Positions 3,500 through 53,850 of a stretch of 64,000 bases of DNA are shown in pieces (within the stretch, counting starts at the first letter, position 1; each line of letters begins with the position of its first letter). The DNA is from Heptranchias perlo (lineage: Eukaryota). The notes beneath the pieces were generated by a model. The model made no database searches. It had not been told where the DNA came from and saw only the letters and a program-made list of their open reading frames with translations. The DNA lies in the NCBI RefSeq assembly GCF_035084215.1, contig NW_027139559.1, positions 2,418,001-2,482,000 on the forward strand, given 5' to 3'. A program made the position numbers and the translations under genes.

Positions 3500-6360
3500 C
3501 AGATTTAACATAGATTCTACAAAGCATTTACAGTACAGACACATGCCGTTTACCCCAGCTGGTCTGTGCCAGTGTTCATGCCCCACACAAGATTCCTCCC
3601 ACCTTTTCTAATCTCACCCTATCATCATACCTTCCGATTCCTTTCTCCCTCGTGTACTTACCTACCTTCCCCTTAATTGAATCGATGCTATTCGCACCAC
3701 GAGATGCGAATCTTTCCTATTAAGTTTCCCTTCCCTGGCCTCATTCGAGTGAATCTACAAAGTACCCTCAATGGCTCTAATGTTGTTTCTAAATTGGGGG
3801 CACCAAAACTGCACAACATATTCTGGAACTACCAGCTGTAATCAAAGCGAATAGCTTAAAAACCTTCATCCGAGTCACCGTCCCAGAGTCCAGTAAGAAG
3901 TGAAAAGCGTAAAATAAAGTTAAAGCTTCATCTTCGTCTCTGTAGCCGGTTTCATTTTTGATAGAGGCCCTGCAGAAGGCGCAGGAGGAAATACCATTCT
4001 ATGAAATAGCAAGTTCCACATTCTCACCACTCCCTGGGTAAAGAAGTTTCTCTTGAATTCCTTGTTGGATTAATTAGTGACTATCTTATATTAATGACCC
4101 CAAGTTTTGGTCTCCCCCACAAGTGGAAACATCTTCTCTAACTCTTCCCTGTCAAACCCCTTCATAATTGTAAAGGCCTATATTAGTTCACCCCTCAGAC
4201 TTTACTTTGCTATAGAAAAGAGCCCCAGCCTGTTCAGTTTTTGCTGATATATATAACCTTTCAGTTCTGGTATCATTCTGGTGAATCGTGTTTGCACCTT
4301 CTGCGGTGTCTCTGTCTAAGAGGAGACCGGTTACAGAGACTAATATGAAGATTTATTAGTTACTTGTGTTTTTTTCCCTTTGGTTATAACCCGTTGTACT
4401 GGTCTCTGGGACTGGTGACTGGGATGAAAGTTTATTATTATTCTCTTTGGTTACAGCCCGTACTTCCAGGGTACAGTGTCCAGTTTTGGTGCCCCATTAT
4501 AGAAACGTTATTAAAGTCATTTAGGGCACTTGGTAGATTCACTCGAATGAGGACGGGGAAAGGAAAATTATCAGGAAAGATTTGAAATACCGAGATTGTT
4601 TCAACGGGTATAGAGAAGAGGCGACTTACATTTTAATTGATGAAGGTGTTTGACAGAGTAATAGAGAATTACTGTATCCTGTATTTGCGAGGATGAGTGA
4701 CAAGGGGACATCAATTTCAGCTCATCATGAAAGAATTTAAATGTAAATTCTTCACTCAGAGGTTTTTTGGAGCATGGAATGTTTTACCACAGGGAATGGA
4801 AAAAACAGAATAGGGACAATTGCATTTTTTACCATTGCATTGATTAAGAGAAAATTGAATAAATATTTGAAATTGATGAACATAAAGGGCATTTGGAAGA
4901 AAGTTTGCCGCGGCATAGGTTTTGCAAATGCTTTGATCATGAACTGGCACTGACATGATGGGCTAAATGGATATACCTGTTTCTCCACTACCCCGTATCT
5001 ATACGTTAGTTTAACCCTGAGATCTAACTATAGTTCCCCTTACGCTCTGAACTGGATATTCATCTTTCTGCGCTGTCCAATATCTAAAAATACGACTGTG
5101 CAACCTTGGGATGAAATAATACATAGATTCTACATAGAATTTACAGAAACAGGCCATTCGGCCCAACTGGTCTGTGCTGGTGTTTATGCTCCGCACACGA
5201 TTCCTCATACCCTCCTCACGTATCCCTATCTGCATGCTTTTCTGATCCTTTCTCCATCATGTACTCATCCAACTTCCCCTTAAATTCGTCTAAGATATTC
5301 ACCTCAACTAATCCACTAAGTTCCACATTGTCACCACTCTCTGAGTAAAGATGTTTCTCCTGAATTCCTTATTGCATGTAATATGAGCCCCAGTGCTTTG
5401 TTTGCATTTTTGTGGTCTTGTTAATGTGTGTTGCTTCTTTTAATGATTTGTGAATCTGTACCCAAGATCATTCTGCTCCTCTAGTCCATTTACACTTTTA
5501 TTTTCCACAGTATGTGGCCTCTTTATTCCGAATATCAAAATGTACTACATCACACTTAACTGTATTGAAATTGAGTTGCGATTTACACGCTCATTTTGCA
5601 TGTTTATTAACATCTTCTTGCATTTGTCGCAGTCCTCCTCATGATTATCTGTACCCCTCAATTTGGTATCACCCGCAAATTTTGTATTTGTACTTCCAAT
5701 TCCTGAGTCCAGTAGTTCCCGCTGAAAATCTGAACTGGATTTTCAGTTTTCTGCACTGCCCCACATCTAACAATACGATCATGTAACTCCGGGATATAAA
5801 AATACATGGATTTCACATAGAACCTAAATAGAATGTACCGCATAGAAACAGGCCATTCGGCCCATTAGTTTGTGCAGGTGCTTATACTCAACACGAGATT
5901 CCTTCCACCCCGCTTCAACTAACCCTATTAGTGCATCTTTTTATTCCTTTCTCCCTCATGTAATTATTTAGCTTCCCCTTAAATGCATCTATGCTGTTCC
6001 CCTCAACCAATCCATGTCGTATCAAGTTGTACAATTTAACCCATCTCTGGGTAAAGACGTTTCTCCTGCATCTCTTATTGTATTTATTAGTCACTATTTT
6101 AGATTGATCACGCCAAGTTGTGGACTCTCTACAGGTGGAAACATCTTCTCTACCTCTACCCTATAAAACATCTTCATAATTGTAAAGACTTCATAATTAG
6201 GTCACCCCTCAGTCTTCTCTTTTATAGAGGGATGAGCCCGAGCCTGTTCAACCTTTCCTGATAAGGATATCCTCTCAGTTATGTTATCATTCTTGGGAAT
6301 CATTTCGCACCTTCTCCAGTGCCTCTATCTCTTTTTTACACAATGGAGATCAGAACTCTA
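3500..6360. mobile_element. Patchwork of old CR1 3'-end fragments in both orientations
   Basis: Repeated CR1 3' ORF2/3'UTR motifs (antisense GTTCCACATTCTCACCACTC..TGGGTAAAGAAGTTT; GGCCATTCGGCCC). Confidence 0.7.
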
Positions 6361-6399
6361 ATGGGCAGGGAGGATGGATGGGCTGTGTTGTGGGGGGTG

Positions 6400-8790
6400 T
6401 GTGAGCTCTGATGTTCGGAGTGGATGGGCGGGCTCTGTTGTGGTGGGCGAGGGACAGCTGGGCTCTGTCGTGAGGGGAGGGAGACAGCCGGGCGTGTTGT
6501 GGGGTGGCGGGGGTGAAAGCCGGGCTCTGTTGTTGCGGAGGGGGATAGGCGGGCTCCGTTGTGGGGGAGGGGGATAGGCAGGCCCTGTTGTGGGGGGATT
6601 TGGGATAGGCGGGCTCTGTTGTTGCGGAGGGGGATAGGCGGTCTCCGTTGTGGGGGGAGGGGGAAAGGCAGGCCCTGTTGTGGGGGGATTTGGGATAGGC
6701 GGGCTCTGTTGTGGGGGGATTTGGGATAGGCGGGCTCTGTTGTTGCAGAGGGGGATACGCGGGCTCGGTTGTGTGGGGAGGGGGATAAGCGGGTCCTGTT
6801 GTGGGGGGAGAGGGATAGGCGGGCTCTGTTGTGGGGGAGGGGGATAGGCGGGCTCTGTTGTGGGGGAGTGGGATAGGCGGGCTCTGTTGTGGGGGAGGGG
6901 GATAGGCGGGCACTGTTGTGGGGGAGGGGGATAGGCGGGCTCTGTTGTGGGGGGGGGGGAATAGACGGGCTCTGTTGTGGGCGGAGGGGGATAGGCGGGC
7001 TCTGTTGCGGGTGAGGGGGATATGCTGGCTCTGTTGTGGGGAAGGGGGATAGGCGGGCTCTGTTGTGGGTGAGGGGGATTGGCGGGCTCTATTGTGGGTG
7101 AGGGGGATAGGCGGGCTCTGTTGTGGGTGAGGGGGATAGGCGGGCTCTGTTGCGGGTGAGGGGGATAGTCTGGCTCTGTTGTGGGGAAGGGGGATAGGCT
7201 GGCCCTGTTGTGGGGAAGGGGGAATGGCTGGCTCTGTTGTGGGGAAGGGGGATAGGTGGGCTCTGTTGTGGGTGAGGGGGATAGGCGGGCTCTGTTGTGG
7301 GTGAGGGGTTATGCGGGCTCTGTTGTGGGGAATGGGGATAGGCTGGCTCTGTTGTGGGGAAGGGGGATAGGCGGGTTCTGTTGTTGGTGAGGGGTTATGC
7401 GGGCTCTGTTGTGGGGAATGGGGATTGGCGGGCTCTGTTGTGGGGAAGGGGGATTGGCGGGCTCTGTTGTGGGCGAGGGGATAGACTGGCTCTGTTGTGG
7501 GGAATGGGGATAGGCGGGCTCTGTTGTGTGGGGAGGAGGATAGGCGGGTTCTGTTGTGGTGTGTGGGCGATAGGCGGGCTCTGTTTTAGGGGAGGGAATA
7601 CGCCGGATATGCTGTGGGGGAGGGGGAAAGGCTGGCTCTAATGTGGGTGAGGGGGATAGGCGTTCTCTCTTGTGGTGTGTGGGGTAGAGGCGGGCTCTGT
7701 TTTAGGGGAGGAGGATAGGCGGGCTCTGTTGTGGTGTGTGGGGTGTAGGCGGGCTCTGTTTTAGAGGAGTGGGATTGGCGGGCTCTGTTGTGGGTGAGGG
7801 GGATAAGCGGGCTCCGTTGTGGGGGAGGGTGATAGACCGGCTCTGTTGTGGGTGAGGGTGATAGGCGTGCTCTGTTTTGGGAGAGTGGGATAGGCGAGCT
7901 CTGTTGTGGTTGAGGGGTTAGGCGTTCTCTGTTGTGGTTTGTGGGGGATATGCGGGCTGTGTTTTAGGGGAGGGGAATAGGCGGGCTCTGCTGTGGGTGA
8001 GGGGCATAGGCGGCTCTGTTTGGGTGGAGGGGGGATAGGCGGGCTCTGTTGTGGGGGAGGGGGTTAGGAGGGCTCTTTTGTTGTGGAGGGGTATAGACGG
8101 GCTCTGTTGTGGGAGGAGTTTGAAAGCCGGGCTCTATTGCGGGGGGAGTGGGTACAGTCGGGATCTGTTGTGGGTGAGGGTGTTAGGCGGGCTCTGTTGT
8201 GGGGCGACGGAGGATAGGCGGGCTCTGTTGTGGCAGAGGGGGCTAGGCGGGCTCTGTTGTTGCGGAGGCGGATAGGCGGGCTCTGTTGTGGGGCGACGGA
8301 GGATAGACGGGCTCAGTTGTAGCAGAGGGGGCTAGGCGGGCTCTGTTGTGGCGGAGGTGGTTAGGCGGGCTCTGTTGCGGTGAGGGGGTAGGCGGACTGG
8401 TCTGTGGGGGAGGGGCGATAGGCGGGCTCTGTTGTGGGCGGAGGGTAGGTAGGTGGGCATTTTGCGTGGGTGGGGGAGAGACGGACTCTGTCGTGAGGAT
8501 TGGGAATAGGCGGGCCCTGTTGTGCGAGGAGGGAGGTGAGGCGGTTTCTGTTGCGGGGAGAGGGAGGTTATTTGGGCTCTTTTGCTGGGAGAGGGTGGAT
8601 AGACGGGCTCTGTTCTGGGGGCAGAGGTGTAGGCGGGCTCTGTTGTAGGGGGAGGGGTATAGGCGGGCTCTGTTCTGGGGGCAGGGGTGTTGGCGGGCTC
8701 TGTTGTGGGGGAGGGGGATAGGCGGGCTCTGTTGTGGGGGAGGGTGATAGGCGGGCTCTGTTTTTGGGGGTGGGGGTAGATGGGCTTTGT
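6400..8790 (+). repeat. G-rich minisatellite, ~29-31-bp unit (GGGGATAGGCGGGCTCTGTTGTGGGGGA), ~2.4 kb
   Basis: Directly visible tandem unit with strong G-strand skew; the Pro-rich and Gly-rich ORFs here are translation artefacts. Confidence 0.95.
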
Positions 8791-9448
8791 TGCTGGGAAT
8801 GAGATTAACCGGGCTCTTTTATTGGCCGGCCTGTGGTGTATGTTAACATGTTTCTTGTACAGAATCCAACTCTCTTGTTTCATTTCAGAATTTTTGCTGT
8901 GACTGAAGACGGATTTGTTTAAAGATTTTGACAATTCGCATGTACAGACCTTGAAAGATCCGGGTTTAATCCATATTCTGTGCTGAGTTAATGGAAACCA
9001 GTTGGAACAATACAACTGGGCTGAGTGCCGCTGGGGTAAGTCAGGGGGAAACTCCATCAGGGCTCCTGCTCTCGACGGCGATCCAGTGACCCCGGTATCG
9101 GGTGAGAACACCATCAGTGAACTCCACACACTCAAACTCAAGGCTCAGACACGTGGCCAGCAAACTGGTGACTGTGGAACTGAACCACAGTCTGAGTTTG
9201 CACTTTAAGGGGAGGAATAAAGAATACTTGGAGAGGAGAAAATAAATAATAAGAGACCAAGCGATGATTCTCAAGCAATGACCACAGAGAGGGGAAGGAT
9301 TGTGTGAGACGCGGATTTACAGCTTTGGGGGAACAGGAGAGGAAAGAATGTTCCACAGATACTAGAATTATCTGTTCTGAGTTTCGATCCTTTATTTACA
9401 TTGATGAATTTTATAAACTCCTTTTGCAGGGTATTAGAAGGGAAGGAT

Positions 9449-11309
9449 TATAAATAAATAAAGGAAAATAAAGGAAAATCCTAAGATGTTTTATAAGTAT
9501 ATTAAGGGTAAGAGGATGACTCGGGAAAAAATAGGGCCCATTAGGGACAAAAATGGCAATCTGTGTGTGGAGCCGGCAGATGTAGGAGGGGTTCGAAATG
9601 AATTTTTTGCATCTGTTTTCACTTTGGAGAAGGACGATGTAGACATAGAAATACGGCAGGGGGACTGTGATATACTCGAACATATTAACATCGAGCGGGA
9701 GGAGGTATTGGCGGTTTCAGCAGGCCTAAAAATCGATCAATCCCCAGGCCCGGACGAAATGTATCCCAGGCTACTGTGTGAGACAAAGGAAGAGATTGCG
9801 GGGGCTCGAACACATATATTCAGAACCTCTCTGGCCACAGGGGATGTGCCAGAGGACTGGAGAACCGCTAATGTAGTACCATTATTCAAGAAGGGGAGTA
9901 GGGAAAAACCAGGGAACTACAGGCCAGTGAGCCTAACATCAGTGCTAGGAAAATTATTGGAAAAAATTCTGAAGGACAAAATTAGTCTCCACTTGGAGAA
10001 GCAAGGATTAATCAAGGATAGTCAACATGGCTTTGTCAAGGGAAGATCATGTCTGACTAATTTGATTGAATTTTTTGAGGGGTGACTCGGCGTGTGGATG
10101 AGTGTAACGCAGTGGATGTGATAGACATGGATTTCAGTAAGGCCTTCGATAAAGTCCCCCACAGGAGACTGGTCAAGAAGGTACGAGCCCATGGAATCCA
10201 GGGTGCCTTGGCACTTTGGATACAAAACTGGCTTAGTGGCAGAAGGCAGAGGGTGATGGTCGAAGGTTGTTTTTGTGACTGGAAGCCTGTGGCCAGTGGG
10301 GTACCACAGGGATCGGTGCGGGGTCCCTTGCTGTTTGTGGTCTACATTAATGATTTGGATATAAATGTAAAAGGTATGATCAGTAAGTTCGCTGATGATA
10401 CAAAAATTGGTAGGGTGGTAAATAGCGAGGAGGATAGCCTCAGTCTGCAGGACGATATAGATGGGTTGGTCAGATGGGCGGAACAGTGGCAAATGGAATT
10501 TAACCCGGAAAAGTGCGAGGTGATGCACTTTGGAGGGACTAACAAGGCAAGGGAATACACAATGAATGGGAGGACCGTAGGCAAGACAGAGGGTCAGAGG
10601 GATCTTGGTGTGCAAGTTCACAGATCCCTGAAGGCGGCGGAACAGGTAGATAAGGTGGTAAAGAAGGCATATGGGATACTTGCCTTTATTAGCCGAGGCA
10701 TAGAATATAAGAGCAAGGAGGTTATGATGGAGCTGTATAAAACACTGGTTAGGCCACAGCTGGAGTACTGTGTGCAGTTCTGGTCGCCACACTACAGGAA
10801 TGATGTGATCGCTTTGGAGAGGGTGCAGAGGAGATTCACCAGGATATTACCAGGGCTGGAGCGCTTCAGCTATGAAGAGAGACTGGGAAGATTGGGTTTG
10901 TTTTCCTTGGAGCAGAGGAGGCTGAGGGGGGACATGATTGAGGTGTACAAAATTATGATGGGCAGAGATAGGATGGATACTAAGGAGCTTTTTCCCTTCG
11001 TTTTGGGTTCTATCACAAGAGGACATAGATTCAATGTAAAAGGCGGGAGGTTTAGAGTGGATTTGAGAAATAACTTTTTCACCCAGAGGGTGGTTGGAGT
11101 CGGTAACTCACTGCCTGAGAGGGTTGTGGAGGCGGGAACCCTCACAACATTCAAGAAGCATTTGGATGAGCACTTGAAATGCCATAGCATACAAGGCTAC
11201 GGACCAAATGCTGGAATATGGGATTAGAGTGGACAGGGCTTGATGGCCGGCGCGGACACGATGGGCCGAATGGCCTCTATCCGTGCTGTATAACTCTATG
11301 ACTCTATGA
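9449..11309 (+). mobile_element. Young 5'-truncated CR1 LINE (RT to 3'UTR) with (ACTCTATG)n tail
   Basis: ORFs 9486..10085 and 10082..11227 together form ORF2 with one frameshift near 10080 (SPGPD, YRPVSLTS, DFSKAFDKV, GVPQGS, SKFADD, LEYCVQFWSP). 3' microsatellite tail at ~11293-11309. Confidence 0.95.
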
Positions 11310-11840
11310 TTTGCAGACGGGAAACTCAAACGAAGTATCACATAAAGCTCTGACAGTCACTCCATTCATCATGTGGAAGGAGAAATGTTTGTCCGTTCTG
11401 TCTGTGGGAAAAGATTTCAAACAACAGTGTGACTGGAAAAGCACCGAGACACACACAACTGAGTGAGAGTGTTCCAGTGCACTGACTGTGGAAAGAGCTT
11501 TAACCAGTTACAAAGCCTGAAAAAACATCGCACCATTCACAGCGGGGAGAACCCGTACACGTGTTCTGTGTGTGGACGAGGCTTCAACTGATCGTCCAAC
11601 CAGAAGGGTCACAGGACACCCGCACCACGGAGAAACCGTGGAAATGTCGAGACTGTGGGACGGGATTGAATTCCCAGTCCCAGCTGGAAACTCATCGACG
11701 CATTCACACTGGGGGAGACCGTTCACATGTTCCATGCGTTGGAAGGCATTCACTCTGTCATCCCATCTGCTGACACACCAGCGAGTTCACACTGAGGATA
11801 GACCGTTCGTCCGCTCCGTGTGGGAAGGAATTCACTAATT

Positions 11841-12591
11841 CACAGAATCATAGAGTTAAGCAGCACGGATAGAGGCCCATCGGCCCATCGTGTCCGCGCC
11901 GGCCATCAAGCCCAGTCTAATCTACTCCCATATTCCAGCATTTGGTTCGTAGCCTTGTATGCTATGGCATTTCAAGTGCTCATCCAAATGATTCTTGAAT
12001 GTTGTGAGGGTTCCTACCTCCACAACCCTCTCAGGCAGTGAGTACCAGACTCCAACCACCCTCTGGGTGAAAAAGTTCTTTCTCAAATCCCCTCTAAACC
12101 TCCCGCCTTTTACCTTGAATCTATGCCCCCTTGTTATAGAACCCTCAACGAAGGGAAAAAGTTCCTTAGTATCCATCCTATCTATGCCCCTCATAATTTT
12201 GTACACCTCAATCATGTCCCCCCTCAGCCTCCTCTGCTCCAAGGAAAACAAACCCAATCTTCCCAGTCTCTCTTCACAGCTGAAGCACTCCAGCCCTGGT
12301 AACATCCTGGTGAATCTCCTCTGCACCCTCTCAAAAGCGATCACATCATTCCTGTAGTGCGGCGACCAGAACTGCACACAGTACACCAGCTGTGGCCTAA
12401 CCAGTGTTTTATACAGCTCCATCATAACCTCCTTGTTCTTATATTCTATGCCTCGGCTAATAAAGGCAAGTATCCCATATGCCTTCTTTACCACCTTATC
12501 TACCTGTTCCGCCGCCTTCAGGGATCTGTGAACTTGCACACCAAGATCCCTCTGACCCTCTGTCTTGCCTAGGGTCTTCCCATTCATTGTG
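11841..12591 (-). mobile_element. Young CR1 3' fragment, same family as 9449-11309
   Basis: ORF 11922..12596(-) is nearly identical to the C-terminus of 10082..11227. TTCA flanks both junctions (possible TSD). Confidence 0.95.
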
Positions 12592-13346
12592 TTCATCCAA
12601 ACTGCTGAAACACCAGCGAATTCAGACTGAGGATGGACCGTTCGTCCACTCCGTGTGGGAAGGAATTCACAAATTCATCCAAACTGCTGAAAGACCAGCG
12701 AATTCACTTCTGACTGCAGGGGTTGGATTCTGCTGTTATTGCTGCAAACAATCACCTCCAGGGCTGAACCATGTTCATTCCGATAGTTGGAGTTTGTTTC
12801 TGCGAATGTTGAGAAGCCCAATAACTGGTCTGGGGTTTAATATTCTGAATAAATGTAAAATAAATCAACTTTGCTTTAAACACATTGTTGTATATTTTGG
12901 TCGTTCCCACCTGAGTGTTCAGCATCCCCTGACTGGAGCTCAGAAAGGACAATCTTGGAGAAGGATTGCACGGTGGGTACAGAGCTTCACCTTGGACACA
13001 GTCCGTCAGGGCCAGACTGAGAGGGGCAAACGGCATTTTGGTCTTTCTCGTCTCTCTTTACTGACAACAAAATCGTCGTGCGTCAATCTTGATGCGTATA
13101 AGAAGTGTGTGCAAGCTGCTCTCTCCCGTGGTTCAGAGCTCCTGGACACGGAACAGAAGACTTCTTTACACCTGTGTTTACAGTCGGGAAGAACAACGGT
13201 GAATGCTGCAAACATGTTCTCAGATCAGAGATTGGTGTTTCCGTGATCTGTTTCACTGAAACGGCAGGCTTAAGTTTCGAGTCTGAAGATGACTGGTTCT
13301 TTAAATAGTAATAATTATTTTTGCTTTGAATACAACCACTGCACCC

Positions 13347-14260: not shown

Positions 14261-14801
14261 GTTCCTTTAACTGGCGACCGCACAGTAACAGAGGACGCAC
14301 GATCCCTTTAAGAGCCGACCCTGCCTCGCTTCATTTTCTTGTGTCAAAAGTTAATAATAAAACTCTTGAAAATCCAACACATTTACTGATAAATGCTAAA
14401 ATATTCCTGCTCACCACATAGTTGTCTTTTTCATTTGATTTTAAATACTTCGTTCTTGTTTAATAAATAATATTTTGAAATATAATCCTTCATTAAACGA
14501 TAAATCAATAAACATCCCCGGCCCGCCTCCTTCAGTGTTTAAGACAAAGAGGCACTGGGTTTGGAACTGCCGCACTGTCCAGCAAAAGTCCCGCCCCCTC
14601 CCGACTGCTAGTGGACGATGAACAGGCTATCGGCCTCCAGCTCAACTCCGCGATTATTATTGGTGATGAAATAATGTCAATCATCTACACCCGCCAAGTT
14701 TGATTGATAGGCGGTCTGGGGGGAACTGTACGTCCAGAACAAAATTCCGGCCAGGTAACAGAATCGGAAACAATTGAAGTTTCACATTATCGGTTGAAAT
14801 A

Positions 14802-15258
14802 AAAGGCTCAGGGCGGTGCGTCGCTCCGGGCCTCAGGTTTCTGAAAGGGCTCAGGGCGGGGGTCGCTCCGGGCCTCAGGTTTCTGAAAGGGCTCAGGGCG
14901 GTGCGTCGCTCCGGGCCTCAGTTTTCTGAAAGGGCTCAGGGCGGTGCGTCGCTCCGGGTCTCAGGTTTCTGAAAGGGCTCAGGGCGGTGCGTCGCTCCGG
15001 GTCTTAGGTTTCTGAAAGGGCTCAGAGCGGGGGTCGCTCCGGGTCTTAGGTTTCTGAAAGGGCTCAGGGCGGCGGGTCGCTCCGGGCCTCAGATTTCTCA
15101 AAGGGCTCAGGGCGGTGCGTCGCTCCGGGCCTCAGGTTTCTGAAAGGGCTCAGGGCGGTGCGTCGCTCCGGGCCTCCGGTTTCTGAAAGGGCTCAGGGCG
15201 GCGGGTCGCTCCGGGTCTTAGGTTTCTGAAAGGGGACAGGGCAGCGGTTTGGCTCCGG
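14802..15258. repeat. CpG-rich 42-43-bp minisatellite (~10 units)
   Basis: Unit GGCTCAGGGCGGTGCGTCGCTCCGGGCCTCAGGTTTCTGAAAG repeated in tandem. Confidence 0.95.
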
Positions 15259-16666: not shown

Positions 16667-17236
16667 GGGTATTAGAAGGGAACGATTTGCAGACGGGAAA
16701 CTTAAACCAAACATCACCTCAAGATCTGACAGAGCCGCTCGATTCATCAGGACCTGAATATCAGCGGCCTTTCAATATGGAAGGATAAATGTTTGTCTGT
16801 TCTGTCTGTGGGAAAAGATTTCGAACATCAGTGTGACTGGAAAATCGAGAAACACAGACACAGCCTGGAAAAAAGCATCGCACCATTCACAGCGGGGAGA
16901 AACCGTACACGTGTTCCATGTGTGGACAAGGCTTCAACTGATCATCCAACCTGGAGAGACACAGGGACACTCGGACTACGGAGAAACCGTGGAAATATGA
17001 GGTCTGCGGGAAGGGATTCAATTAATCATGTGAGCTGGAAACTCATCATCAGCCGACTTCAAACTGGGGAGATGCTGCTCACCTGCTCCGTGTATGAGAA
17101 GCGATTCACTCAGTCATCCCACCTGGTGAAACACCAGCGAGTTCAAACTGGGGAGAGGGTGCTCACCTGCTCCGTGTGTGGGAAGAGATTTACTCAGTCA
17201 TCCCACCTCACTGCACACCGGCGAGTTCACATGTGA
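16667..17236 (+). pseudogene. C2H2 zinc-finger pseudogene, copy 2
   Basis: Paralogous to copy 1 (same GGTATTAGAAGGG...TTTGCAGACGGGAAAC exon start and upstream intron). Terminal fingers [27 protein letters not shown] and [23 protein letters not shown]. Stops at 16834 and 16939 plus frameshifts. Confidence 0.85.
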
Positions 17237-22484: not shown

Positions 22485-22950
22485 GAGAGGCGCTCGGTGA
22501 AGGGCTGGGAGTGTACTGAAGAGTTAATTGTTTCTGGGAAGGGGGATGTGAGTGATTGGGACAAATTTGTTCAGTAGCATGACCTGATGAATGTGCTGCG
22601 GGGCGCTCGGTGATGGGCTGGGAGTGTACTGATATGTTAAGGGTTGTTTGGAGGTGGGATGTGAGGAGCTGGAACATATTGGGTGAGCGGCAGGACCTAA
22701 GCAATGTCCTACAGGGCGCTCGGTGATGGGCTGGGAGTGTACCGATATGTTAAGGGTTGTTTGGAGGTGGGATGTGAGGAGCTGGAACATATTGGGTGAG
22801 CGGCAGGACCTAAGCAATGTCCTACAGGGCGCTCGGTGATGGGCTGGGAGTGTACCGATAAGTTAAGGGTTGGATGGAGGTTGGATGTGAGGGGCTGGAT
22901 CAGATTGGGTCAGCAGCGGGAACTGATCAATGTCCTACAGGGCGCCGAGC
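22485..22950. repeat. ~113-bp tandem repeat (~4 units)
   Basis: GGGCGCTCGGTGATGGGCTGGGAGTGTAC...GGACCTAAGCAATGTCCTACA recurs at ~22489, 22602, 22714 and 22827. Confidence 0.9.
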
Positions 22951-31100: not shown

Positions 31101-34100
31101 CCCTGAGCCACATCACTTATCAGATCCTGTCAATCTGATCACATGCCTTGGTGAGGTACCGCATTGTAAACTCATGGCTAAGGTCAGAGCATGTGGAGTC
31201 AGGGGGCAGGTAGCAGAACGGATTGCAAGTTGGCTACAAAACGGGAAACATAGAATAGGGGTTTAATGTTTACCCCTCAGGCTGGCAAACGGTGGGAAGT
31301 GGTGTTCCACAGGTATCAGTACTGGGACAACTGTTGTTCACAATTTGAATTAATGCTTCGAATCCAGGAATCGGGAGCACAATTTCAAAATTTACGGACG
31401 ACATCAAATTGGGGGGTTGTGGATAACACAAATGAAGAATGCGTCAAAATTCAAAAGGACATTAATAAACTCGCGAAAGGGTGTGTAATTGGCAAATCAA
31501 TTTCAATATTGATAAGTGTGAGGCGATGCATATTGGCAGGAAGAATAAGGAGGCCACATACTGCTTGGACAGTAAGGGTTTAAATGGGGTAGAGGAGCAA
31601 AGGGTTGTAGGGGTACAGATACACATATTACTAAATGTAGCGACACAACTTGACAAGGCCATAAAAAGGCAAATAAAGCACGAGGGTTTATTCGAGAGGG
31701 ATAGAATTGTAAAGCAGAGACGTTATGTTAAACTTGTATCGAACCTTGATTAGAACTTGGAGCATTGTGCACATTTCTGGTCTCCATATTATAAAAAGGA
31801 TATAGAGGCATTGGAGAAGGTGCAAAAAAGATTCACAAGAACTATACAAGAACTGAACAGATATCCTTATCAGGAAAGGCTGAACAGACCCTCTACAGAA
31901 AAAAGGCTGAGGGGTGAACTGATACAAGTCTTTAAGATAATGATGGGGTTTGAAAGAATTGAACAGTAGAAAATGTTTACTCTTGTCGGGGAGTCCAAAA
32001 CTAGAAAACATAAATGTAAAATTGTCATTAATAAATCCAATAGGGAATTCAGGAGAAACTTATTTACCTAAAGAGTAGTAAGAATGTGGAACGCGCTACC
32101 ACAAGGAGGAGTTGAGGCATCGAAGCATTTAAGGTTAAGCTAGATAAGCACATGAGCAGTAATGGAATAGAAGGGTATCCAGAAAAACTTAGATGGATTC
32201 GGGAGGGAGGAAGCTCATGTGGAGACTAAGCACCAGCCCAGTTGGACCGAATGGCCTGTTTCTTTGCTGTAATGTCCATTTAACTCAACTGTACTTGATC
32301 AGCGACCGCATGAAAAAAATTATGTCGATTATCCAAATGGGGATTACCCTTAACAAAGCCACGCTTGTTCGCCCTGAACGTCTGATATTTGTTCACGTGC
32401 TCATTCATTCTATCCCTAATGAGAGACTCTGGTAACTTTCGCCGTTCCTTCATTGTCGCTGGGTCAAAATCCTGGAACTCCCTTCCTAACAGCACTGTGG
32501 GAGAACCGTCACCACACGGACTGCAGCGGTTCAAGAAGGCGGCTCACCACCACCTTCTCAAGGGCAATTCGGGATGGGCAATAAATGCCGGCCTTGCCAG
32601 CGACGCCCACATCCCGTGAACGAATAAAAAAAAACTTCTTCACAACTGATGTTAAACTGCAAGCTTTGCAGTTTCCTGGTTTCTCTCTCTCAGCCCTCTG
32701 AAATAATGAATTGACATCAGCAATTTCCAATCTATCTGCACAATTACCGAACCAAGAGAGCTTTGAAAGATTATGACTAACGCTTCTGCATTCTCCTCAC
32801 CTACTTATTATAATTCCCTGGGCAGGAAACTATCGGGTCCAGGTGATTTATCTGTCCTAAATCCCATTATTTCCTGCATACCTTTTTTTTTACCAATATT
32901 GAATATAATAAGATGCACCTCTTGAATTTTTTTTAGTTTTCCTTCTATCACTGATATTTTATTCTCTTCCTGTACTGTGAACACGGACACAAAGTGCTCG
33001 TTTAATAAATCTGCCATTAACTTGTAACCTATTACAATATTAGTTCCATCTGTCTTTAATGGCTTACATCTCCATTAGTCACATTTTTACTCTGAATATG
33101 TTCATACAATCATTTACTATTAGCCTTCATATTACTTGCAAGTTTTTCTATATACCTTTTAACCAGATCTTCATATTTTCTTTGTGTCCTTTTGTTTTTT
33201 TTCCTGTATTGCTCCCAGTCTGCTGGATTACAACCTTTCTGGGCATTGATGTAAGGTTAATATCCTACAACCGTGTTAGCAGTGAAACGTGCTTCATTAA
33301 TTGTACAGACCAGCTCAGTCAAGGCAATAAGGAAACATTGAGTTGAAAAGGGGGGGAGGGGTCAGGTGAGAGGGAATTTAGAAATCTAAATAGATAAGTC
33401 AAGGCAATGGAGCAGTGGGGTGATTTGGGTAAAGATAAGCAGAGTGTGACATGAAGGGATGGAGAGTTTAACGGTAATAGCGCGACAGCGAATAATGTCA
33501 AAGCAGGGAAAATGGTAAAATCTTAAAATTAAAGGCGCTTTATCAGAATACATGAAACATTCGTAACAAGACAGAGGCTGAGGGGGGACATGATTGAGTT
33601 GTACAAAATTATGAGGGGCACAGATAGGATGGATACTAAGGAGCTTTTTCCCTTCGTTGAGGGTTCTATAACAAGGGGACATAGATTCAAGGTAAAAGGC
33701 GGGAGGTTTAGAGGGGATTTGAGAAAGAACTTTTTCACCCAGAGGGTGGTTGGAGTCTGGAACTCACTGCCTGAAAGGGTTGTGGAGGCAGGAACCCTCA
33801 CAACATTCAAGAAGCATTTGGATGAGCACTTGAAATGCCATAGCATACAAGGCTACGGACCAAATGCTGGAATATGGGATTAGAGTAGACAGGGCTGATG
33901 GCCGGCGCGGACACGATGGGCCGAAGGGCCTCTATCCGTGCTGTACAACTCTATGACTCTATGACTCTATGAATTAGTGCCGCAAAAAGGGATAAATGGA
34001 TTTGATCTAATAGCTATTACAGAGACGTGGTTGCAAGGTGTCCAGGGTTGGGAACAAAATTTTCCAGTGGACTTGACGTTTCGAAAAGACAGACAGAATG

Positions 34101-37100: not shown

Positions 37101-37955
37101 CCTGTCCAATCTAATCGTGAATGTTGACATAGAAGATCCTGGCTCAACCACGAACCCTGGAAGTGAATTCCACAGCCTGCTGTGTGATGGAGTTTCTCCT
37201 GCCCTCTGTTCCAAATCTCTTACTTTTAATCCTTTATCTGTGGGTACTCGTCTTGATTGCTCAACCATGTAAACAATCTGTTTCTGTCTACCCTGTCCCA
37301 TTATTCCATCAATGTAAACACTTCTATTATATCGCCCCATAATCGAAGATGTTCGAACGAAAAAAAAAAAAATTTCAAACTTTGTTAAAATTTATATTTC
37401 CTCATACAAAGCAGCATCCCAGTCAGTCTGTGTTGTAATATTCTTCCTATAGTGTGGAGCCCAATACTGCACACAGTATCCTAACTGAGGTCTTATTTAG
37501 ATTTTATAGGCTCATCATCACCTATTGGCTTTCATATTATCTACATCTTATAATAAACCTAGAATTCCATTAGCTTTTCTCTAGCCTGATCAACATGAGG
37601 TGCTGCCATTAATGTCCTGTGAACCCGTGTCCCCAAATCCCTCTTCTTCCACAGCACTGAGCCTGCTTCCATTCAGAGTATAATTGCGACTGTTTTTCTT
37701 TACAAAAAATTATCAACTCACACTTGCTGATAATGAATTCCATCTGCCACCATTCGGCCCATTCTCCCATTTTATTAATATCCCTTTGAAGCTTCTTTTG
37801 GTCTCCGAAATAATTATCTGTACTCCTATTTTGGTCTCATGCTCCAATTTCGACACCACTTTCTCCAGGCCTAGATCCCGATCATTGGTATACGTGGTGA
37901 ATGGAAGTGTCCCCAGAACCGAATCCTGTGGGATATCACTACCAACTTCCAACCC
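28115..37955. mobile_element. Nested field of mostly old CR1 fragments in both orientations, including a young CR1 3' end (~33574-33970, +) and a poly(A) LINE 3' end (~32436-32633, +)
   Basis: ORF fragments with DFQKTFDKIPH, GLPQGFVLGP, CAHFWSPYYKKDI, AITETWL and MGDFNLHIDW. ORF 33590..33883 matches the C-terminus of the 9449-11309 family. Confidence 0.8.
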
Positions 37956-39527
37956 TTCTGAATATAGTGAGCTCTCTGTGGGACATCGCTACCCACATCC
38001 AATCACTCTAACTATAGTGAGCTCTCTGAAACGAATTCTGTGGGATATCACCACCCACTTCCAACCACTTTAACTATAGTGAGCTCTCTGAACTGAATTC
38101 TGTGGGATATCACTACACACTCCCTACCACTCTGCATACATTCAGCTCTCTGTGGGATATCACTACTCACTTCCAACTACTCTGAATATAGTGAGGTCTG
38201 TGTGGGATATCACTACCAACTTCCAACCACGCTGAATATAGTTAGCTCTGTGAACCGAATTCTGTGGGATATCACGACCCACTTCCAAACCCTCCGAATA
38301 TAGTGAGCTCTCCGAACCGAATCCTTTGGGGTATCACAACCCACTTCCAAACCCTCTGAATATGGTGAGCTCTCTGTGGGACATTGCTACCCACTTCTAA
38401 CCACTCTGAATATAGTGCGCTCTCTGAACCGAATCCTGTGGGTTATCACCATCCACTTCCAATCCCTCTGAATATATTGAGCTCTCTGTGGGATATCACT
38501 ACCCACTTCCTACTACTCTGAATATAGTGAGCTCTCTGTGGGACATCGCTACCCACATCCAACCACTCTAAATATACTGAGCTCTGTGAACTGAATTCTG
38601 TGAGATATCACTACCCACTCCCTACCACTCTGCATATATTGAGCTCTCTGTGGGATATCACTACCCACTTCCTACTACTCTGAATATAGTGAGCTCTCTG
38701 TGGGATATCACTACCCACTTCCAATCCCTCTGAATATAGTGAGCTCTCTGTGGGACATCGCTACCCACATCCAACCACTCTGAACATACTGAGCTCTCTG
38801 AACTGAATTCTGTGGGATATCACCACCCACTCCCTACCACTTCTGCATATATTGAGCTCTCTGTGGGACATCACTACCCACTTCCAACCACTCTGAATAT
38901 AGTGAGCTCTCCGAACCGAATCCTTTGGGATATCACTACACACTTCCAACCCCTCTGAATATGGTGAGCTCTCTGTGGGACATTGCTACCCACCTCTAAC
39001 CACTCTGAATATAGTGCGCTCTCTGAACCGAATCCTGTGGGTTATCACCATCCACTTCCAACCCCTCTGAATATAGTGAGCTCTCTGTGGGACATTGCTA
39101 CCCACCTCTAACCATCTGAATATAGTGCGCTCTCTGAACCGAATCCTGTGGGTTATCACCATCCACTTCCAACCCCTCTGAATATAGTGAGCTCTCTGTG
39201 GGACATTGCTACCCACATCCAACCACTCTAAATATATTGAGCTCTGTGAACTGAATTCTGTGAGATATCACGACCCACTCCCTACCACTCTGCATATATT
39301 GAGCTCTCTGTGGGATATCACTACCCACTTCCAACCCCTCTGAATATAGTGAGCTCTCCGAACCGAATCCTTTGGGATATCACTACCCACTTCCAACCCC
39401 TCTGAATATTGTGAGCTCTCTGTGGGACATCGCTCCCCACTTCCAACCACCCTGAATATAGTGAGCTCTCTTAACTGAATTCTGTGGGATGTCACCACCC
39501 ACTTCCAACCCCTCTGAATATGGTGAG
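37955..39527. repeat. GAGCT-containing minisatellite (50/61-bp units) derived from an antisense CR1 RT segment
   Basis: Unit TCTGAATATAGTGAGCTCTCTG(AACCGAATCCTG)TGGGATATCACTACCCACTTCCAACCAC. It continues directly from the CR1 fragment ending ~37955, and the minus strand reads LEVGSDIPQDS. Confidence 0.9.
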
Positions 39528-40075
39528 TTCCCTTATTCCTATCTTCTAATCGTTTTTATTCCCGTTTGCTCTCCTCTCCTTATATCTATACTTCTTATCT
39601 TTACATAATTTCCAATGTATTAACTTGTTGAATGCTTCCTTAAAGCCCATGTACATTGCAAACTGGATTACTAAATGTCAAGAGACCACATCGCAAACCA
39701 AACTGCAGGTCTCGTTCTATTAATGCGGCTGATGCGAAGTTTGTCACCGTAAAATATTATAGTGATAATTATTTGAGTGTGCGCTTGTTTTCTGCTTTCG
39801 CTGTGTTAAACTGCCATTTCAGCGCGGATATTATTATTAATACAGCATTAAAGTGTCACCCAATTATTACACTGGGAGAAGTCTGGAAGCACAATTCACA
39901 TGGATGCGAAAATCCCAACAAAGTTCCCATGAAGCGTGTGCTCCATAACTCTACTGATCTCTTCATGTTAATTGGATGAAGATTCCTCTAGTGTGACTAT
40001 GAATATAGGGGACACGATGCAACACATCACAAACCGCGAGCTATACTCACTGCGAATGGTCTCTCACTCTGCCCT

Positions 40076-41935: not shown

Positions 41936-42025
41936 CCTTTTTGAACGAGGCTGACTGGGAGCTGAATGACTGTGGCTATTACTATTACTATGATGGAGCT
42001 GGCACCGTGCTGACTATCAACTCTG
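41936..42025 (+). CDS. IgNAR: IgNAR J segment (41975-42025; YYYYYDGAGTVLTINS) with 5' 23-RSS
   Basis: CCTTTTTGA-23-GACTGTG followed by the IgNAR-type DGAGTVLT motif; donor G|GTAAG at 42026. Confidence 0.95.
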
Positions 42026-42764
42026 GTAAGTGACATCTCTTGCTACTTTATCACTAAGATTTTTTCATAGAAGATATGTAGAATTAGCATTCTCGTTAAA
42101 TTTCTCTTAAGCGCACAGGGCAATAGCCGAAGCTGTTTTTGGAGGTTCGCTTAGGTTCGCTGTCAGTTTATTTGGTTTAAACTTAAAATTATTTTTCAAA
42201 AGAGATTTTGCTCGAGAATGAAACGAGCCTATGTTTAAATACATAACGAACCTCAAAACGAACATATATTTAAATAAATAACAAACCTATATTTAAATAT
42301 ATAATAAACCTATGTTTAAATATATAACGAACCTGTAAACAAGCCTGTATTTAAATATATAACTTACCAACTATGGATCATTTAAGATGCTGATTTGAAT
42401 AGTTATGAATCTCACCGGTGTGATAGTTTAAATAGTTAAAACGCAACCAGCCTAGTGCCGTTACTCTCCTTACTGAGGCGGCCCAGCATATTCATGATAT
42501 ACAGTATTTCTCATTCAAAGAATTTATACAATTCTGGGGCGAGGACAGTTTGCTGCAAACAAGGAATTAATTCAACGTGTGATTAATAAAATACTGAGAA
42601 CGAATTCCTTTCCCCCTCTAAAATCAGCCCTTATTCAATAAAAAAACTGATAAATTAATTCCGGTACCGAACCTTTAAATATATTGTCTATTCGTATCTT
42701 GACATCTGTGACTCTCGTTTAATGCGCATGTGTCACAGTGACCTGGAAAGAAAAGGAAATGATT

Positions 42765-44130: not shown

Positions 44131-45539
44131 CTCTATCCGCAGGAGAAGGTAGATTTCCAACCTTACCGGATACCAGAGCAGCTCACCAGAATGACCCCTG
44201 ACATGGAACCTTAGAAAATATCCAGCATAAAGCTCCCAAAATGTGGCAGCCAGTAACATTAGAGAATACTGTTTATGAACGGGAGCAATGAGATGCAGAT
44301 TGTACTAGAAACAGTGGTGAATAGAAGGGTTTCATCGCAGACATAGAACACCGCACTTATCGAAAGGAAAAACCTTCTCAGAAAAGAAGAATGTGCGCGG
44401 GCAGAAACTCCGATTGGTTCCTTTACACAGATCCATGCAAATTGTTCTCCCATGAATTCCCTCCCAAAACAACTGCTACTCCCCAGTTTAAATAATCCTA
44501 AATCTTATACCTTTCTCCACCGAAATCGCAGGACCATCCACTTAATCTGTCCGTTGCACTAAACCAGATGTTAACTGGTTTATTAAAAACGGGCCCTGTA
44601 GTAGGAGAGTGAACTGAGGAAACTCAAACGTTAATCGTGGTGCCCTGAGACGGCCCACAATGATGTTTAAGGTTAATATCCTTCCTTGCCTCCTCTGAGT
44701 GAAAAAAAGGAATAAAGCAATGGTATTAATATCTCTGTCAGTGGTATTCACTCTCCCACTATCATCGGGAGATATTTATATATAATCTGCCAATTTACAC
44801 AAGGATGGCGCATTTAGTACTTGCATTCTGTCGTCGTTGTCCCGATAAATAACTTGTTCACTTCCACCTCGTAGTCTCGTTAAATCATGTTTCATTGTTT
44901 CAAAGATGTGTATCATTGTTTTTCACTTTTGTAAAGCATCTGAAGTTGTCCTTTGAGATTTCTCTCTTTCTCTCTGACTTATTCACTTTTTCAGCAGCTA
45001 TTATTTTCAAGGCTCTTATCGGAATCCAGCCCAACCCTGCCTATCATAGAATCATAGAATGATACAGCACAAAAGGAGGCCATTCGGCCCATCGGGCCTC
45101 TGCCGGATCTTTAAAGCCAGCCAATTCGTCCCACTCCCCTACTCTTTCCACATAGCACTGCAAATGCTTTCACTGCAATTAATGATCAAATTCCCTTATG
45201 AAAGTTATTGTTGAATCTGCTTCAACCACCTGTTCAAGCAGTGAATTCCAGATCATTACAATTAGCTGCTTAAAAAAATCTCCTCATCTCGCCTCCGGTT
45301 GTTTTGCCAATGACCTTAAATCTGTGTCCTCTGGTTACCGATCCGCCTGCCACTGGAAACAGTGTTTCCTTATTTACCCTTTCGAAACCTTTCATGATTT
45401 TCAACACCTCGATTAAATCTCCCCTTAACCTTTTCTGCTTTAAGGAGAACATGGTGTGGAGATGCCGGTGATGGACTGGGGTTGACAATTGCAAACAATT
45501 TTACAACACCAAGTTATAGTCCAACAAATTTATTTTAAA

Positions 45540-45580
45540 TTCCACAAGCTTTCGGAGGCTTCCTCCTTCCTCAGGTGAAT
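45540..45580 (-). ncRNA. Minimal hammerhead ribozyme motif (antisense arm copy)
   Basis: Minus strand TTCAC-CTGAGGA-A-GGAGG-AAG-CCTCC-GAAA-GCTT-GTGGA. Confidence 0.65.
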
Positions 45581-45815
45581 GGTGAATTGTGGCTGCCAAG
45601 ATAGGAAATTGGCTAAGGGACAGAAAGCTGAGAGCTACGGTAAACGGTTGATTTACAGACTGGAGGGATGTTCACAGTGGTGTTCTCCAGGGGTCGGTAT
45701 TAGGAGCACTGCTCTTTTTGATATATATTAATGACCTGGATGGGTATAACAGACATAATTTCAAAATTTGCAGATGACACGAAGCTCGGAAATGTAGTTA
45801 TCAATGGTCCACACC

Positions 45816-45856
45816 ATTCACCTGATGAAGGAGGAAGCCTCCGAAAGCTTGTGGAA
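45816..45856 (+). ncRNA. Minimal type-I hammerhead ribozyme motif (Penelope-type)
   Basis: TTCAC-CTGATGA-A-GGAGG-AAG-CCTCC-GAAA-GCTT-GTGGA: core CUGANGA/GAAA, 5-bp stem II, palindromic AAGCTT stem III, stem I CAC/GTG. Confidence 0.7.
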
Positions 45857-47099
45857 TTTAAAATAAATTTGTTGGACTATAACTTGGTGTTGTAAAATTG
45901 GTTACAATTAAGGAGAACAACCCGAGCTTCTCTCGTTTCTCCAGGTAACTTAAATCCCGCATTCCTGGTACCTGGTAAATCTCCTCTGCACCCTCTCTAA
46001 GGCCTTGATATCCATCTTAAAGTGTGGTTCCCAGAAATCGACACAATACTCCAGCTGTGGCCCAACCAGTGATTTCTGAAGGTTTAGCATAACTTCCTTG
46101 CTTTTGTACTCTGTGCTTCTATTAAAAAAAGCCTGGGATCCCATCTGCTTGTTTGACAACCTTCTTAACTTGGCGTGCTACCTTCGAAGATTTGTGTACA
46201 TATACCTCGAGGTCTCTCTGGTCCTGCACCCCCGTTAACATTGTACCAGTTTGTATATGTTGTCTGTCCTTATTCTTCCGATCAAAATGCATCACTTCCA
46301 ACTCACTGAGCGAAATTTAATTTGCCACGTGTTTGCCCATTTCATCAGTCTGTCTATGTCCTCCTAAAGTCTGTGAATATCCTCCACATTGATTACCCAT
46401 CCAGGTCATTAATATATATCAAAAAGAGCAGTGCTCCTAATACCGACCCCTGGAGAACACCACTGTATACTTCCCTCCAGTCTGAAAATCAACCGTTTAA
46501 CGTAGCTCTCTGCTATCTGTCCCTTAGCCAATTTCCTATCTTGGCAGCTACAATTCCTTTGATGCGATGGGCTTCAATTGTCTTATGCTATGTTCCTTTC
46601 ATACTTAAAGTATATCTATTTGATTGTCTTTCTCACGATAAGACATTCAGAGCGCGAAACCTCTCTGGCCCACAGCACATATTGCGAATTTGGGTAGATG
46701 CTTCAGAATGATTCATCATCTATTCATTTTAGCCATTGGCAAATTTTGAGGAGCACATTCCCGAAAGGCTGGAGCCTGATTTTAATAGATTAGACCCAGC
46801 CTTCTGATCTTCCCTGAAAACAATGTGCTCTGCATCTCACTGTGCTTCTTTCTAACCAACGTGAAACGGCGCTCTCCCAGCGGCTGGTTTTCAGTCCATT
46901 GAAATTTGGATTCAGGGATTTTGGAAATGTTATTCAGGAAGGTGTGGAGAGTATTTCTCGGAAGTTCCTTGGATAAGTATAAATACTAAGAGTAAAGTTA
47001 ACAAGTGGAAACAACTAACCTAAAGATGGGATTAGGTTCGAGATGTGAAAGGAAATCTTCTCCAGCAAGATGAAAGAATCGCAGAGATATGAGACAAGG

Positions 47100-50767: not shown

Positions 50768-51116
50768 AAATGGAGAGAAACTATTTACTGTGGTCGATAA
50801 CTAGCGGGTATGAATTTAAATGGAAATAAACTATTTGCCGTGGGCGGTAACTCGTGGGTATAAGTTTAAATGGAGGGAAACTATTTACCATGATCGATAA
50901 CTAATGGGTATAAGTTTAAATGGAGGGAAACTATTTGCCGTGGTCGATAACTAGTGGATATATGTTTAAATGGAGGGAAACTATTTACCGTGCGTTATAA
51001 CTAGTGGGTATAAGTTTAAAGGGAGAAAAACTATTTACCGTGGTTGAAAACTAGTGGGTATAAGTTTAAATGGAGGGCAACTATTTACCGTGGGCTATAA
51101 CTAGTGGGTATAAGTT
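50768..51116. repeat. 50-bp minisatellite (7 units) derived from CR1 3' ORF2 sequence
   Basis: Unit AAATGGAGGGAAACTATTTACCGTGGTCGATAACTAGTGGGTATAAGTTT, embedded in a decayed CR1 3' end. Confidence 0.85.
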
Positions 51117-52185
51117 TCAGATCATCAGCCAATGATGAATGGAGATATTAGGAGATTTATTTTTATTATGGAGATGGTTGTCAGGACACGGAACCTCCAA
51201 CCATAAACAATGCTGTTTGAAGAATCATGGTATCATAGTAGGTTAAGCACAGGGGAAGACATTCTGCCCACTGTGTCTCTGCTGGGTCTTTGAAAGAGCT
51301 ATCCAATTAGTCCCATTCCTCTGCTCTTCCCCGTCGCCCTGGAAATTAGGTTAAAAGGAAGAAGGCAAATATTGAGAAAGAATGTACCGGGAAAGAAGAG
51401 GAGAATCGGACTGCGCACATCCAGCCCTGATTATCGCTCCCTTAAGGTGAATAGATATCAAATCACAGGCCGGGAATCTACAATTTCCCCATGTACTCTC
51501 CCGCCGTGAGCCATGGGCGGGTCCAGCGGAATTTCCACTGCGAAGCGGTTAGCTCTTCCACAGAGCCCGTAGTGGCGCGATGGGCCGAATGAATCCTTCT
51601 GTGCTGCAAAATATTTTAATTCTATCGCTCCTTCACCTAACATTACCAAAACCATTGCTGTCTCTGACCTCTGATGTTACAAACTCGTTGCTGCAATCGT
51701 CCAGAAATCCAAACAATTCCTTCCTTAAGAAACGCCTATTGCAAAATATTTCCCGGTAAAGTGACGACATGAAACTGCTCCATCCCCAGGAAAATTAAAG
51801 CATGTTACTGGTAACAATAATCGATGTACATTTAAAATCTGACTGTCACTACACACCACTGGACAGTATCGATATTTTTCGTAAAATACATTGATCATTA
51901 TTCACTCCGAAATGAACAAGTGATAAGAACATTATTTGAATGCTCGTTCATGACCGGAACTCATTTATCCCAACACGCTCACTGTAATATCAGCACATTC
52001 AAATCCAGCTTCAGTGCATCCATGTGTTTTTAATTTGGCGGTGTCCGTGGCTGCGAGCAACGTGATACTGACTAGATAATCTGTTTTTAGGTGTTGTTTG
52101 AGGAATAAGTATTGGTCAGGACTCTATATAAACGGTTTAATTGTCATTATGGAAGGGAGTAAGTCTTTCGTTGTAATTTTCTCAG

Positions 52186-53254: not shown

Positions 53255-53850
53255 TCTTTCTCTCTTTCTTTGCCTCCCTCTCTCTCTCTCTCTCTCTGTC
53301 ATGATGTGGAGATGCCGGTGATGGACACGGCTGGACAAATGCAAGGACTTGCACAACACCAGGTTATAGTCCACCAGTTTTATTTTAAATCACAAGCTTT
53401 CGGACCTTACCTCCTTCGTCAGGTGACGAAAATAAAACTGTTGGACTTTCACCTGGTGTTGTGCAAGTCCTTACATCTCTCTCTGTCTGTCTCTCTCTCT
53501 GCCTCTCTATCTCTGTCCCTCTCTCTCTGTGTCTGTATCTGTCTCTCGCTCTGCTCTCTCTCTATATCTGTCTCTCTCAATTTGTCTCTCTCTGTCCCTT
53601 TCTCTCTCTCTGTGTCCCCGTTTCTCCGTCTCTATCTGTCTTTCTCTCTGTCCCTATTCCTCTTTCTATATATACATATATATATATATATCTTTCTCTC
53701 TCACCCTGTTTCTCTCCAACTGTTCGCCTTCTCTATCTTATTCTCTCTATCAGTCCATTTCCCTGCCTCTCTCCCTATCTGTCTGTCACACTCTACCTCT
53801 CTATGTCCCTCTCTCTCTGTCTCTTGTTTTTCTCTCTCCCTCTCTTAGCT
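53255..53850. repeat. Degenerate (CT)n/(CTGT)n microsatellite
   Basis: Directly visible; source of the Ser/Leu-rich spurious ORFs. Confidence 0.9.
53301..53476. mobile_element. Second Penelope-like mini-element with a minus-strand hammerhead (53390-53426) and a short inverted arm
   Basis: Same 5' sequence TGTGGAGATGCCGGTGATGGAC as the 45452 element. Minus strand TCAC-CTGACGA-A-GGA...TCC-GAAA-GCTT-GTGA. 53429-53476 is an inverted copy of 53339-53386 (44/48). Confidence 0.75.

Follow-up and report, generated by a model that had tools for sequence, protein, structure and literature searches.

The analysed window, a 64,000-nt (64-kb) stretch of a Heptranchias perlo contig, contains a J-like segment with a splice donor near 41995 and, from 52.1 kb, five C1-set exons; for the first of them, the best counterpart among single-domain PDB chains is IgNAR C1 (4q97). 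Because the J-like segment precedes and the C1-set exons follow, the small insertion described here lies in a J-C intron, in agreement with the antibody location proposed in the initial annotation. In addition to the splice donor, the J-like segment (41950-42030) carries a run of five Tyr codons, and motif scans found neither a V exon motif nor a close RSS match in front of it. Elsewhere in the window are an open frame of 644 aa with an RVT_1 domain (108-2039, minus strand; E 2e-37), a C2H2 zinc-finger match within 16730-17233 (plus strand), and tandem-repeat arrays detected by self-comparison at 6360-8830, 14801-15258, 22489-22945, 37916-39533 and 50768-51117. Two LINE copies (10557-11312 and 11837-12592) form a tail-to-tail pair, 756 bp long at 95% and 524 bp apart. 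A third copy (33574-33975) is 94-95% alike to them, so the pair probably represents a young family, not a local duplication.

The insertion lies within another, decayed LINE. Its parts, the tract that its middle resembles and a second copy serving as a control are as follows.

45043 to 46581, minus strand: host element, a decayed, 5'-truncated LINE that we take to be of the CR1 type, with its 3' end at 45043 and an RT-like translation with stops; it holds both the target and the donor
45440 to 45449, plus strand: left target-site duplication, 10 bp, repeated at 45908-45917 and present as a single copy in other CR1 copies
45450 to 45584, minus strand: long arm, 135 nt, a Penelope-like element (PLE) terminal-repeat stretch with a minimal hammerhead and a 39-nt tail (45450-45488), 83% like 53300-53426 by self-comparison
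45585 to 45806, plus strand: filler, 222 bp, an inverted copy of the donor as it was before a 53-bp loss, with 8 mismatches in 169 and a common stop, frameshift and rare substitutions
45747 to 45799, plus strand: 53 bp kept in the filler, including the RT FADD codons, and absent from the donor
45807 to 45811, plus strand: five junction bases without an assigned source, four of which fit the PLE tail and the opposite strand of the donor alike
45812 to 45907, plus strand: short arm, 96 nt, with a minimal hammerhead and without the tail
45908 to 45917, plus strand: right target-site duplication, 10 bp, identical to the left 10-mer
46387 to 46555, minus strand: donor tract within the host CR1, with the 53-bp deletion between 46393 and 46394
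53300 to 53476, no strand assigned: second PLE fold-back (control), sharing both outer ends with the first, with a 39-nt tail and a 10-bp target-site duplication, and lacking filler

The 458-bp insertion (45450-45907) is bounded by two identical 10-mers, TTAAGGAGAA. When the insert and one 10-mer are omitted, 11 other LINE copies of the window run colinear with the host CR1 through the site, so the target-site duplication is real. The arms are complementary at 97% over 98 nt in the inverted-repeat comparison. Read in sense orientation, they have a common first base and 3 mismatches in 96, and the long arm extends 39 nt further; their outer ends thus lie 39 nt apart, while their inner ends fall on the same base. 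The short sequence 45808-45817 recurs at 45451 on the minus strand, and 45808-45813 recurs at 46383 on the plus strand. Microhomology amounts to 1 nt at the left junction of the filler and to 0-1 nt at the right one. The initial annotation's outline of a 458-bp insertion with a 10-bp duplication and inverted arms of about 100 bp is therefore upheld by the identity of the 10-mers, the colinear host and the arm alignment.

This layout resembles the insertion unit of EN+ PLEs, which is described as an inverted 5'-truncated copy with a one-sided tail of 30-40 bp and a target-site duplication (PMC8557442, PMC3846280). Like that unit, the insertion has a head-to-head repeat containing an inverted 5'-truncated copy, a hammerhead borne on the repeat and a 39-nt tail on one arm only; the tail and the 10-bp target-site duplication occur in both PLE copies of the window, and this length fits the approximately 8-10 bp expected of an EN+ PLE insertion. 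Unlike that unit, it has no ORF, and its centre is an inverted copy of DNA adjoining the landing site. Both accounts, as consulted, speak of junctions that are palindromic and of pLTRs with host DNA between them, not of a centre made of adjoining DNA. The Penelope-like origin suggested earlier is thus supported by arms that correspond to a PLE terminal-repeat stretch in the published inverted-copy-plus-tail layout, and a truncated Penelope-like insertion is the best interpretation. It is dead and intronic, without sign of function. As for a partner ORF, a scan of 34 frames, out of the 49 in the window that reach 120 aa, gave no GIY-YIG match, and the arm pattern had no match in viral contigs and none in metagenome contigs.

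Over its first 162 bp the filler differs at 8 positions from 46394-46555 taken in reverse complement; it continues through the 53 bp that the donor lacks and ends with 7 bp identical to 46387-46393. The alignment thus reproduces what had been counted by eye, including the FADD codons retained only in the inserted copy. Within the window, BLAST relates filler and donor at an E value of 1e-71, and the next CR1 copies reach only 78%, 69% and 68%. Six substitutions, among them an in-frame stop, are common to filler and donor and were unseen in the other window CR1s covering each site (up to six); a 2-bp frameshift in both is absent from all three aligned copies. The two lesions named as private in the initial annotation appear in both copies. 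Public contigs were matched at 85% or more in four of the 13 listed runs, of which X5 and X10 show the repeats only, and in run X1 a different letter occupies 46434, 46454 and 46489 in 96%, 95% and 98% of the contig depth, respectively. Since the best other CR1 of the window is only 78% alike and the private lesions are common to filler and donor, the copy is local: as compared within the window, the filler source is the inverted donor at 46387-46555. Moreover, the 7 bp that follow the 53 bp agree with the donor and differ from both the family majority (a contig loose end) and the nearest window copy, indicating that one continuous tract was copied before the donor suffered its deletion.

Beyond the copied tract, contigs of runs X1 and X2 matching 46556-46799 look like a paralogue, with 26 differences in 244 letters and a depth of about 28-30, compared with about 8 where pieces match exactly. 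These contigs lose their match at 46556, where the copied tract has its distal end, and 33 of their letters are unaligned there. Near this position the donor bears a cluster of unusual bases that is also present in the filler.

The same lesions bear on the view that the insertion is a non-autonomous element complete in itself, with a middle that is either a constant CR1 piece or an acquisition from a distant CR1 copy. Such an origin might be considered because CR1 copies are very abundant in the public contigs and because host DNA between pLTRs is described as movable in trans (PMC3846280). It is contradicted by the stop, the frameshift and the rare substitutions held in common with the neighbouring tract rather than with the next window copy at 78%, and by the insertions that lack the middle. 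The second copy (53300-53476), which is diverged (83%) and sits in a CT microsatellite of the C1-C2 intron, has a direct inversion junction. In the public contigs, nine of the 15 listed joints, out of 484, run from arm to arm, some with 1-3 letters between the arms; several of the listed joints fall within a few bases of the inner ends of the insertion, and none of them joins an arm to the 222-bp middle. The direct joints, some with 1-3 letters between, indicate that the centre varies from insertion to insertion, and in the second copy and the listed joints the middle does not recur, as it would in a discrete MITE-like element. A fixed or distant middle, the alternative under which the local origin of the middle would fail, is therefore very improbable and appears largely refuted by these comparisons. 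In both fold-back copies the arms differ, in sense orientation, at a site 4 nt short of where the short arm ends, with G in the long arm and A in the short one (45492 versus 45904, and 53342 versus 53473); this could reflect chance, RNA editing or a mark of priming at the inner RT start.

An assembly artefact produced by nested repeats is extremely unlikely. None of the listed contigs spans the junctions or the donor deletion, although these contigs report presence only and constitute no evidence either way. The target-site duplication is perfect and the tail geometry is that of the second copy; an artefact would copy exactly, whereas eight substitutions are spread over both filler and donor and 53 bp occur solely in the filler.

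One hammerhead core lies in each arm, at 45822-45846 (plus strand) and 45574-45550 (minus strand). A core-plus-stem-II scan of both strands of the 64 kb returned three matches, two of which are the arms, so the cores recognized in the initial annotation stand as sequence features. In the Rfam search of the window no match passed the gathering threshold, and at E ≤ 10 there was no hammerhead and one chance snoRNA match (E 2.4). With the minimal hammerheads of metazoan PLEs described in PMC4209133, the arms have in common the CUGANGA core, an extra base between positions 9 and 10.1, the G10.1-C11.1 pair and the palindromic AGCU (15.2-16.2) that replaces helix III. Such minimal hammerheads are thought to require a tandem dimer (PMC4209133); by contrast, the two motifs of the insertion lie on opposite strands and form no dimer in cis. 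Non-LTR retrozymes resemble the insertion in being short, non-coding, PLE-derived sequences with a type I hammerhead. They are described as tandem direct repeats in which two or more hammerhead-bearing units follow one another (10.64898/2026.07.22.740005), while the insertion is an inverted pair with one motif per strand.

For the short-arm hammerhead, cleavage is predicted after 45850, 39 nt inside the arm start. With each arm beginning 39 nt ahead of this site, ribozyme cleavage was rejected as the process that set the arm ends. In isolation, the arms fold no more stably than shuffled sequences (z −0.6 to +0.3), and in a transcript of the unit the arms fold as a 96-bp duplex (z −17). The hammerhead thus neither tips nor processes the unit, given that the predicted cut is internal, the motifs lie on opposite strands and the transcript holds them in that duplex. 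The description of the insertion as a ribozyme-tipped non-autonomous element is consequently unsupported, since the arms end at two fixed points 39 nt apart and the hammerheads are internal, and the hammerhead would have been a passenger in the integration event.

A guide to that event may be Poseidon of the green anole, whose PLE protein nicks and extends both strands in vitro; two internal RT start sites bound the tail, and hammerhead cleavage is unneeded, the uncut RNA serving as template (PMC11167929). The Poseidon ORF begins at the hammerhead (PMC11167929), whereas the equivalent ATG frame of the insertion stops after 13 codons and was rejected as an ORF. Joints at the centre are not a subject of the Poseidon account as consulted.

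Taken together, two head-to-head arms around a locally copied middle are probably explained by cDNAs primed from both cut strands, whose ends were joined by repair synthesis that copied 222 bp. The target would have received a 10-nt staggered cut, and both cut strands would have primed short cDNAs on the element RNA, from two internal start sites. Reverse transcription from both starts would have run off the common 5' end of the RNA. The resulting cDNA ends, being identical and non-complementary, could not anneal, and a repair joint would have been needed. With the right flank resected, one cDNA end may have folded back onto DNA 480-650 bp away, followed by synthesis on the flank, release and end-joining with 0-1 nt of microhomology. 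Two-strand priming is supported by the equal outer ends, the equal 39-nt tail and the 10-bp target-site duplication in both window copies. Because junction microhomology is only 0-1 nt, the annealing is not directly visible and the direction of copying is not fixed by the sequence.

Alternatively, on reaching the RNA 5' end the element's own RT may have switched to local DNA, as the initial annotation proposed, or to a nascent transcript of the locus, and copied the filler there. Both arms stop at one inner base, where the filler begins with a 1-nt overlap, as after run-off, and the orientation of the filler would suit an IgNAR pre-mRNA or host CR1 RNA as template. Template jumps have also been proposed for PLE captures (PMC3846280). 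On the other hand, PLE RT activity on DNA templates was not found in the PLE literature consulted, germline transcription of this intron is putative, and for L1 such a product is attributed to end remodelling in which RT takes no part (10.1101/2024.12.14.628481). The sequence reads alike for an element RT and a host repair polymerase, and we regard a jump by the element RT as unlikely, though deserving of consideration.

The divergences bear on the timing of the copying. Arms differ at 3 of 96 positions and filler and donor at 8 of 169, which are alike at a Fisher p of 0.75, a comparison of little power. Derived changes occur on both sides, two in the filler and three in the donor, with three more without an assignable side. 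Arm and filler-donor divergence may thus weakly fit a single event, a clock that runs alike for integration itself and for a time soon after. These two counts would also suit a plain 96-bp palindrome that landed first, its fragile centre breaking later through cruciform or hairpin cleavage and being repaired with a templated patch. Perfect palindromes are unstable, and direct arm-to-arm joints are the common form. However, both inner ends of the insertion are kept to the same base and lie at or beyond the ends in other copies (45574-45581 and 45815-45827), indicating that nothing was lost at the centre, and the filler is no younger than the arms. A later patch is therefore rather improbable.

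The favoured explanation, two separately primed cDNAs bridged by repair synthesis, can be compared with L1, for which templated insertions use genomic templates of less than 250 bp near the site, typically within 15 bp (10.1101/2024.08.27.596794), and inverted duplications are attributed to self-annealing of a resected end (10.1101/2024.12.14.628481). As in these L1 templated insertions and local inverted duplications, a genomic template of less than 250 bp near the site was copied into a retrotransposon insertion: the filler is 222 bp long and carries the private lesions of its neighbourhood. Unlike in the L1 cases, the enzyme is of another class, the filler sits between two cDNAs, and the insertion is germline and has been fixed long enough for about 5% divergence. 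The donor, which lies in the right-hand flank 480-650 bp from the insertion site, is also well beyond the 15 bp typical of L1 templates, and this distance counts against the favoured explanation.

The 53-bp deletion of the donor is blunt in the present sequences; with the family base at one donor position, it would have a 3-nt repeat on either side. Only 7 bp separate it from the proximal end of the copied tract, and 45 of 1081 random placements came as close to a tract end (a post hoc comparison); no other large gap was seen in the host CR1. Its position and its being the sole large gap give a mild hint of coupling with the copying event, but such coupling is doubtful, albeit a real possibility. 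Most likely, the deletion arose later in the donor by slippage or end-joining; as derived changes lie on filler and donor both, enough time had passed for the loss to be a separate, later event. A hairpin within the missing 53 bp was rejected as the cause of the deletion (DNA fold z +0.4 to +0.9). In the broadest form of the argument, a Penelope RT would bridge two cDNAs via a resected chromosome hundreds of bases off, the 53-bp deletion would belong to the same event, and PLE integration would routinely duplicate, invert and delete distant host DNA, here in an antibody locus; we consider this whole chain quite unlikely.

In a literature search covering the main texts of openly accessible papers, no publication on local filler inside PLE inverted repeats was found. 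The PLE inverted layout and local templated insertions (of L1) are each already published, and their combination is the variant here. For the formation of PLE head-to-head repeats, self-priming on an antisense template has been proposed (PMC3846280) and two-strand priming has been seen in vitro (PMC11167929). Filler from the landing site at the centre of the repeat implies that the centre would have been an open DNA joint at the locus. This speaks for two cDNAs primed separately and is difficult to reconcile with self-priming. What makes the case a clean one is that its donor, a decayed repeat, carries private lesions and that the earlier state of this donor survives in the filler. The underlying repair outcome is already known from L1, and the value of the insertion lies in what may be a clean footprint, at the landing site, of a PLE inversion with an open joint in its centre.
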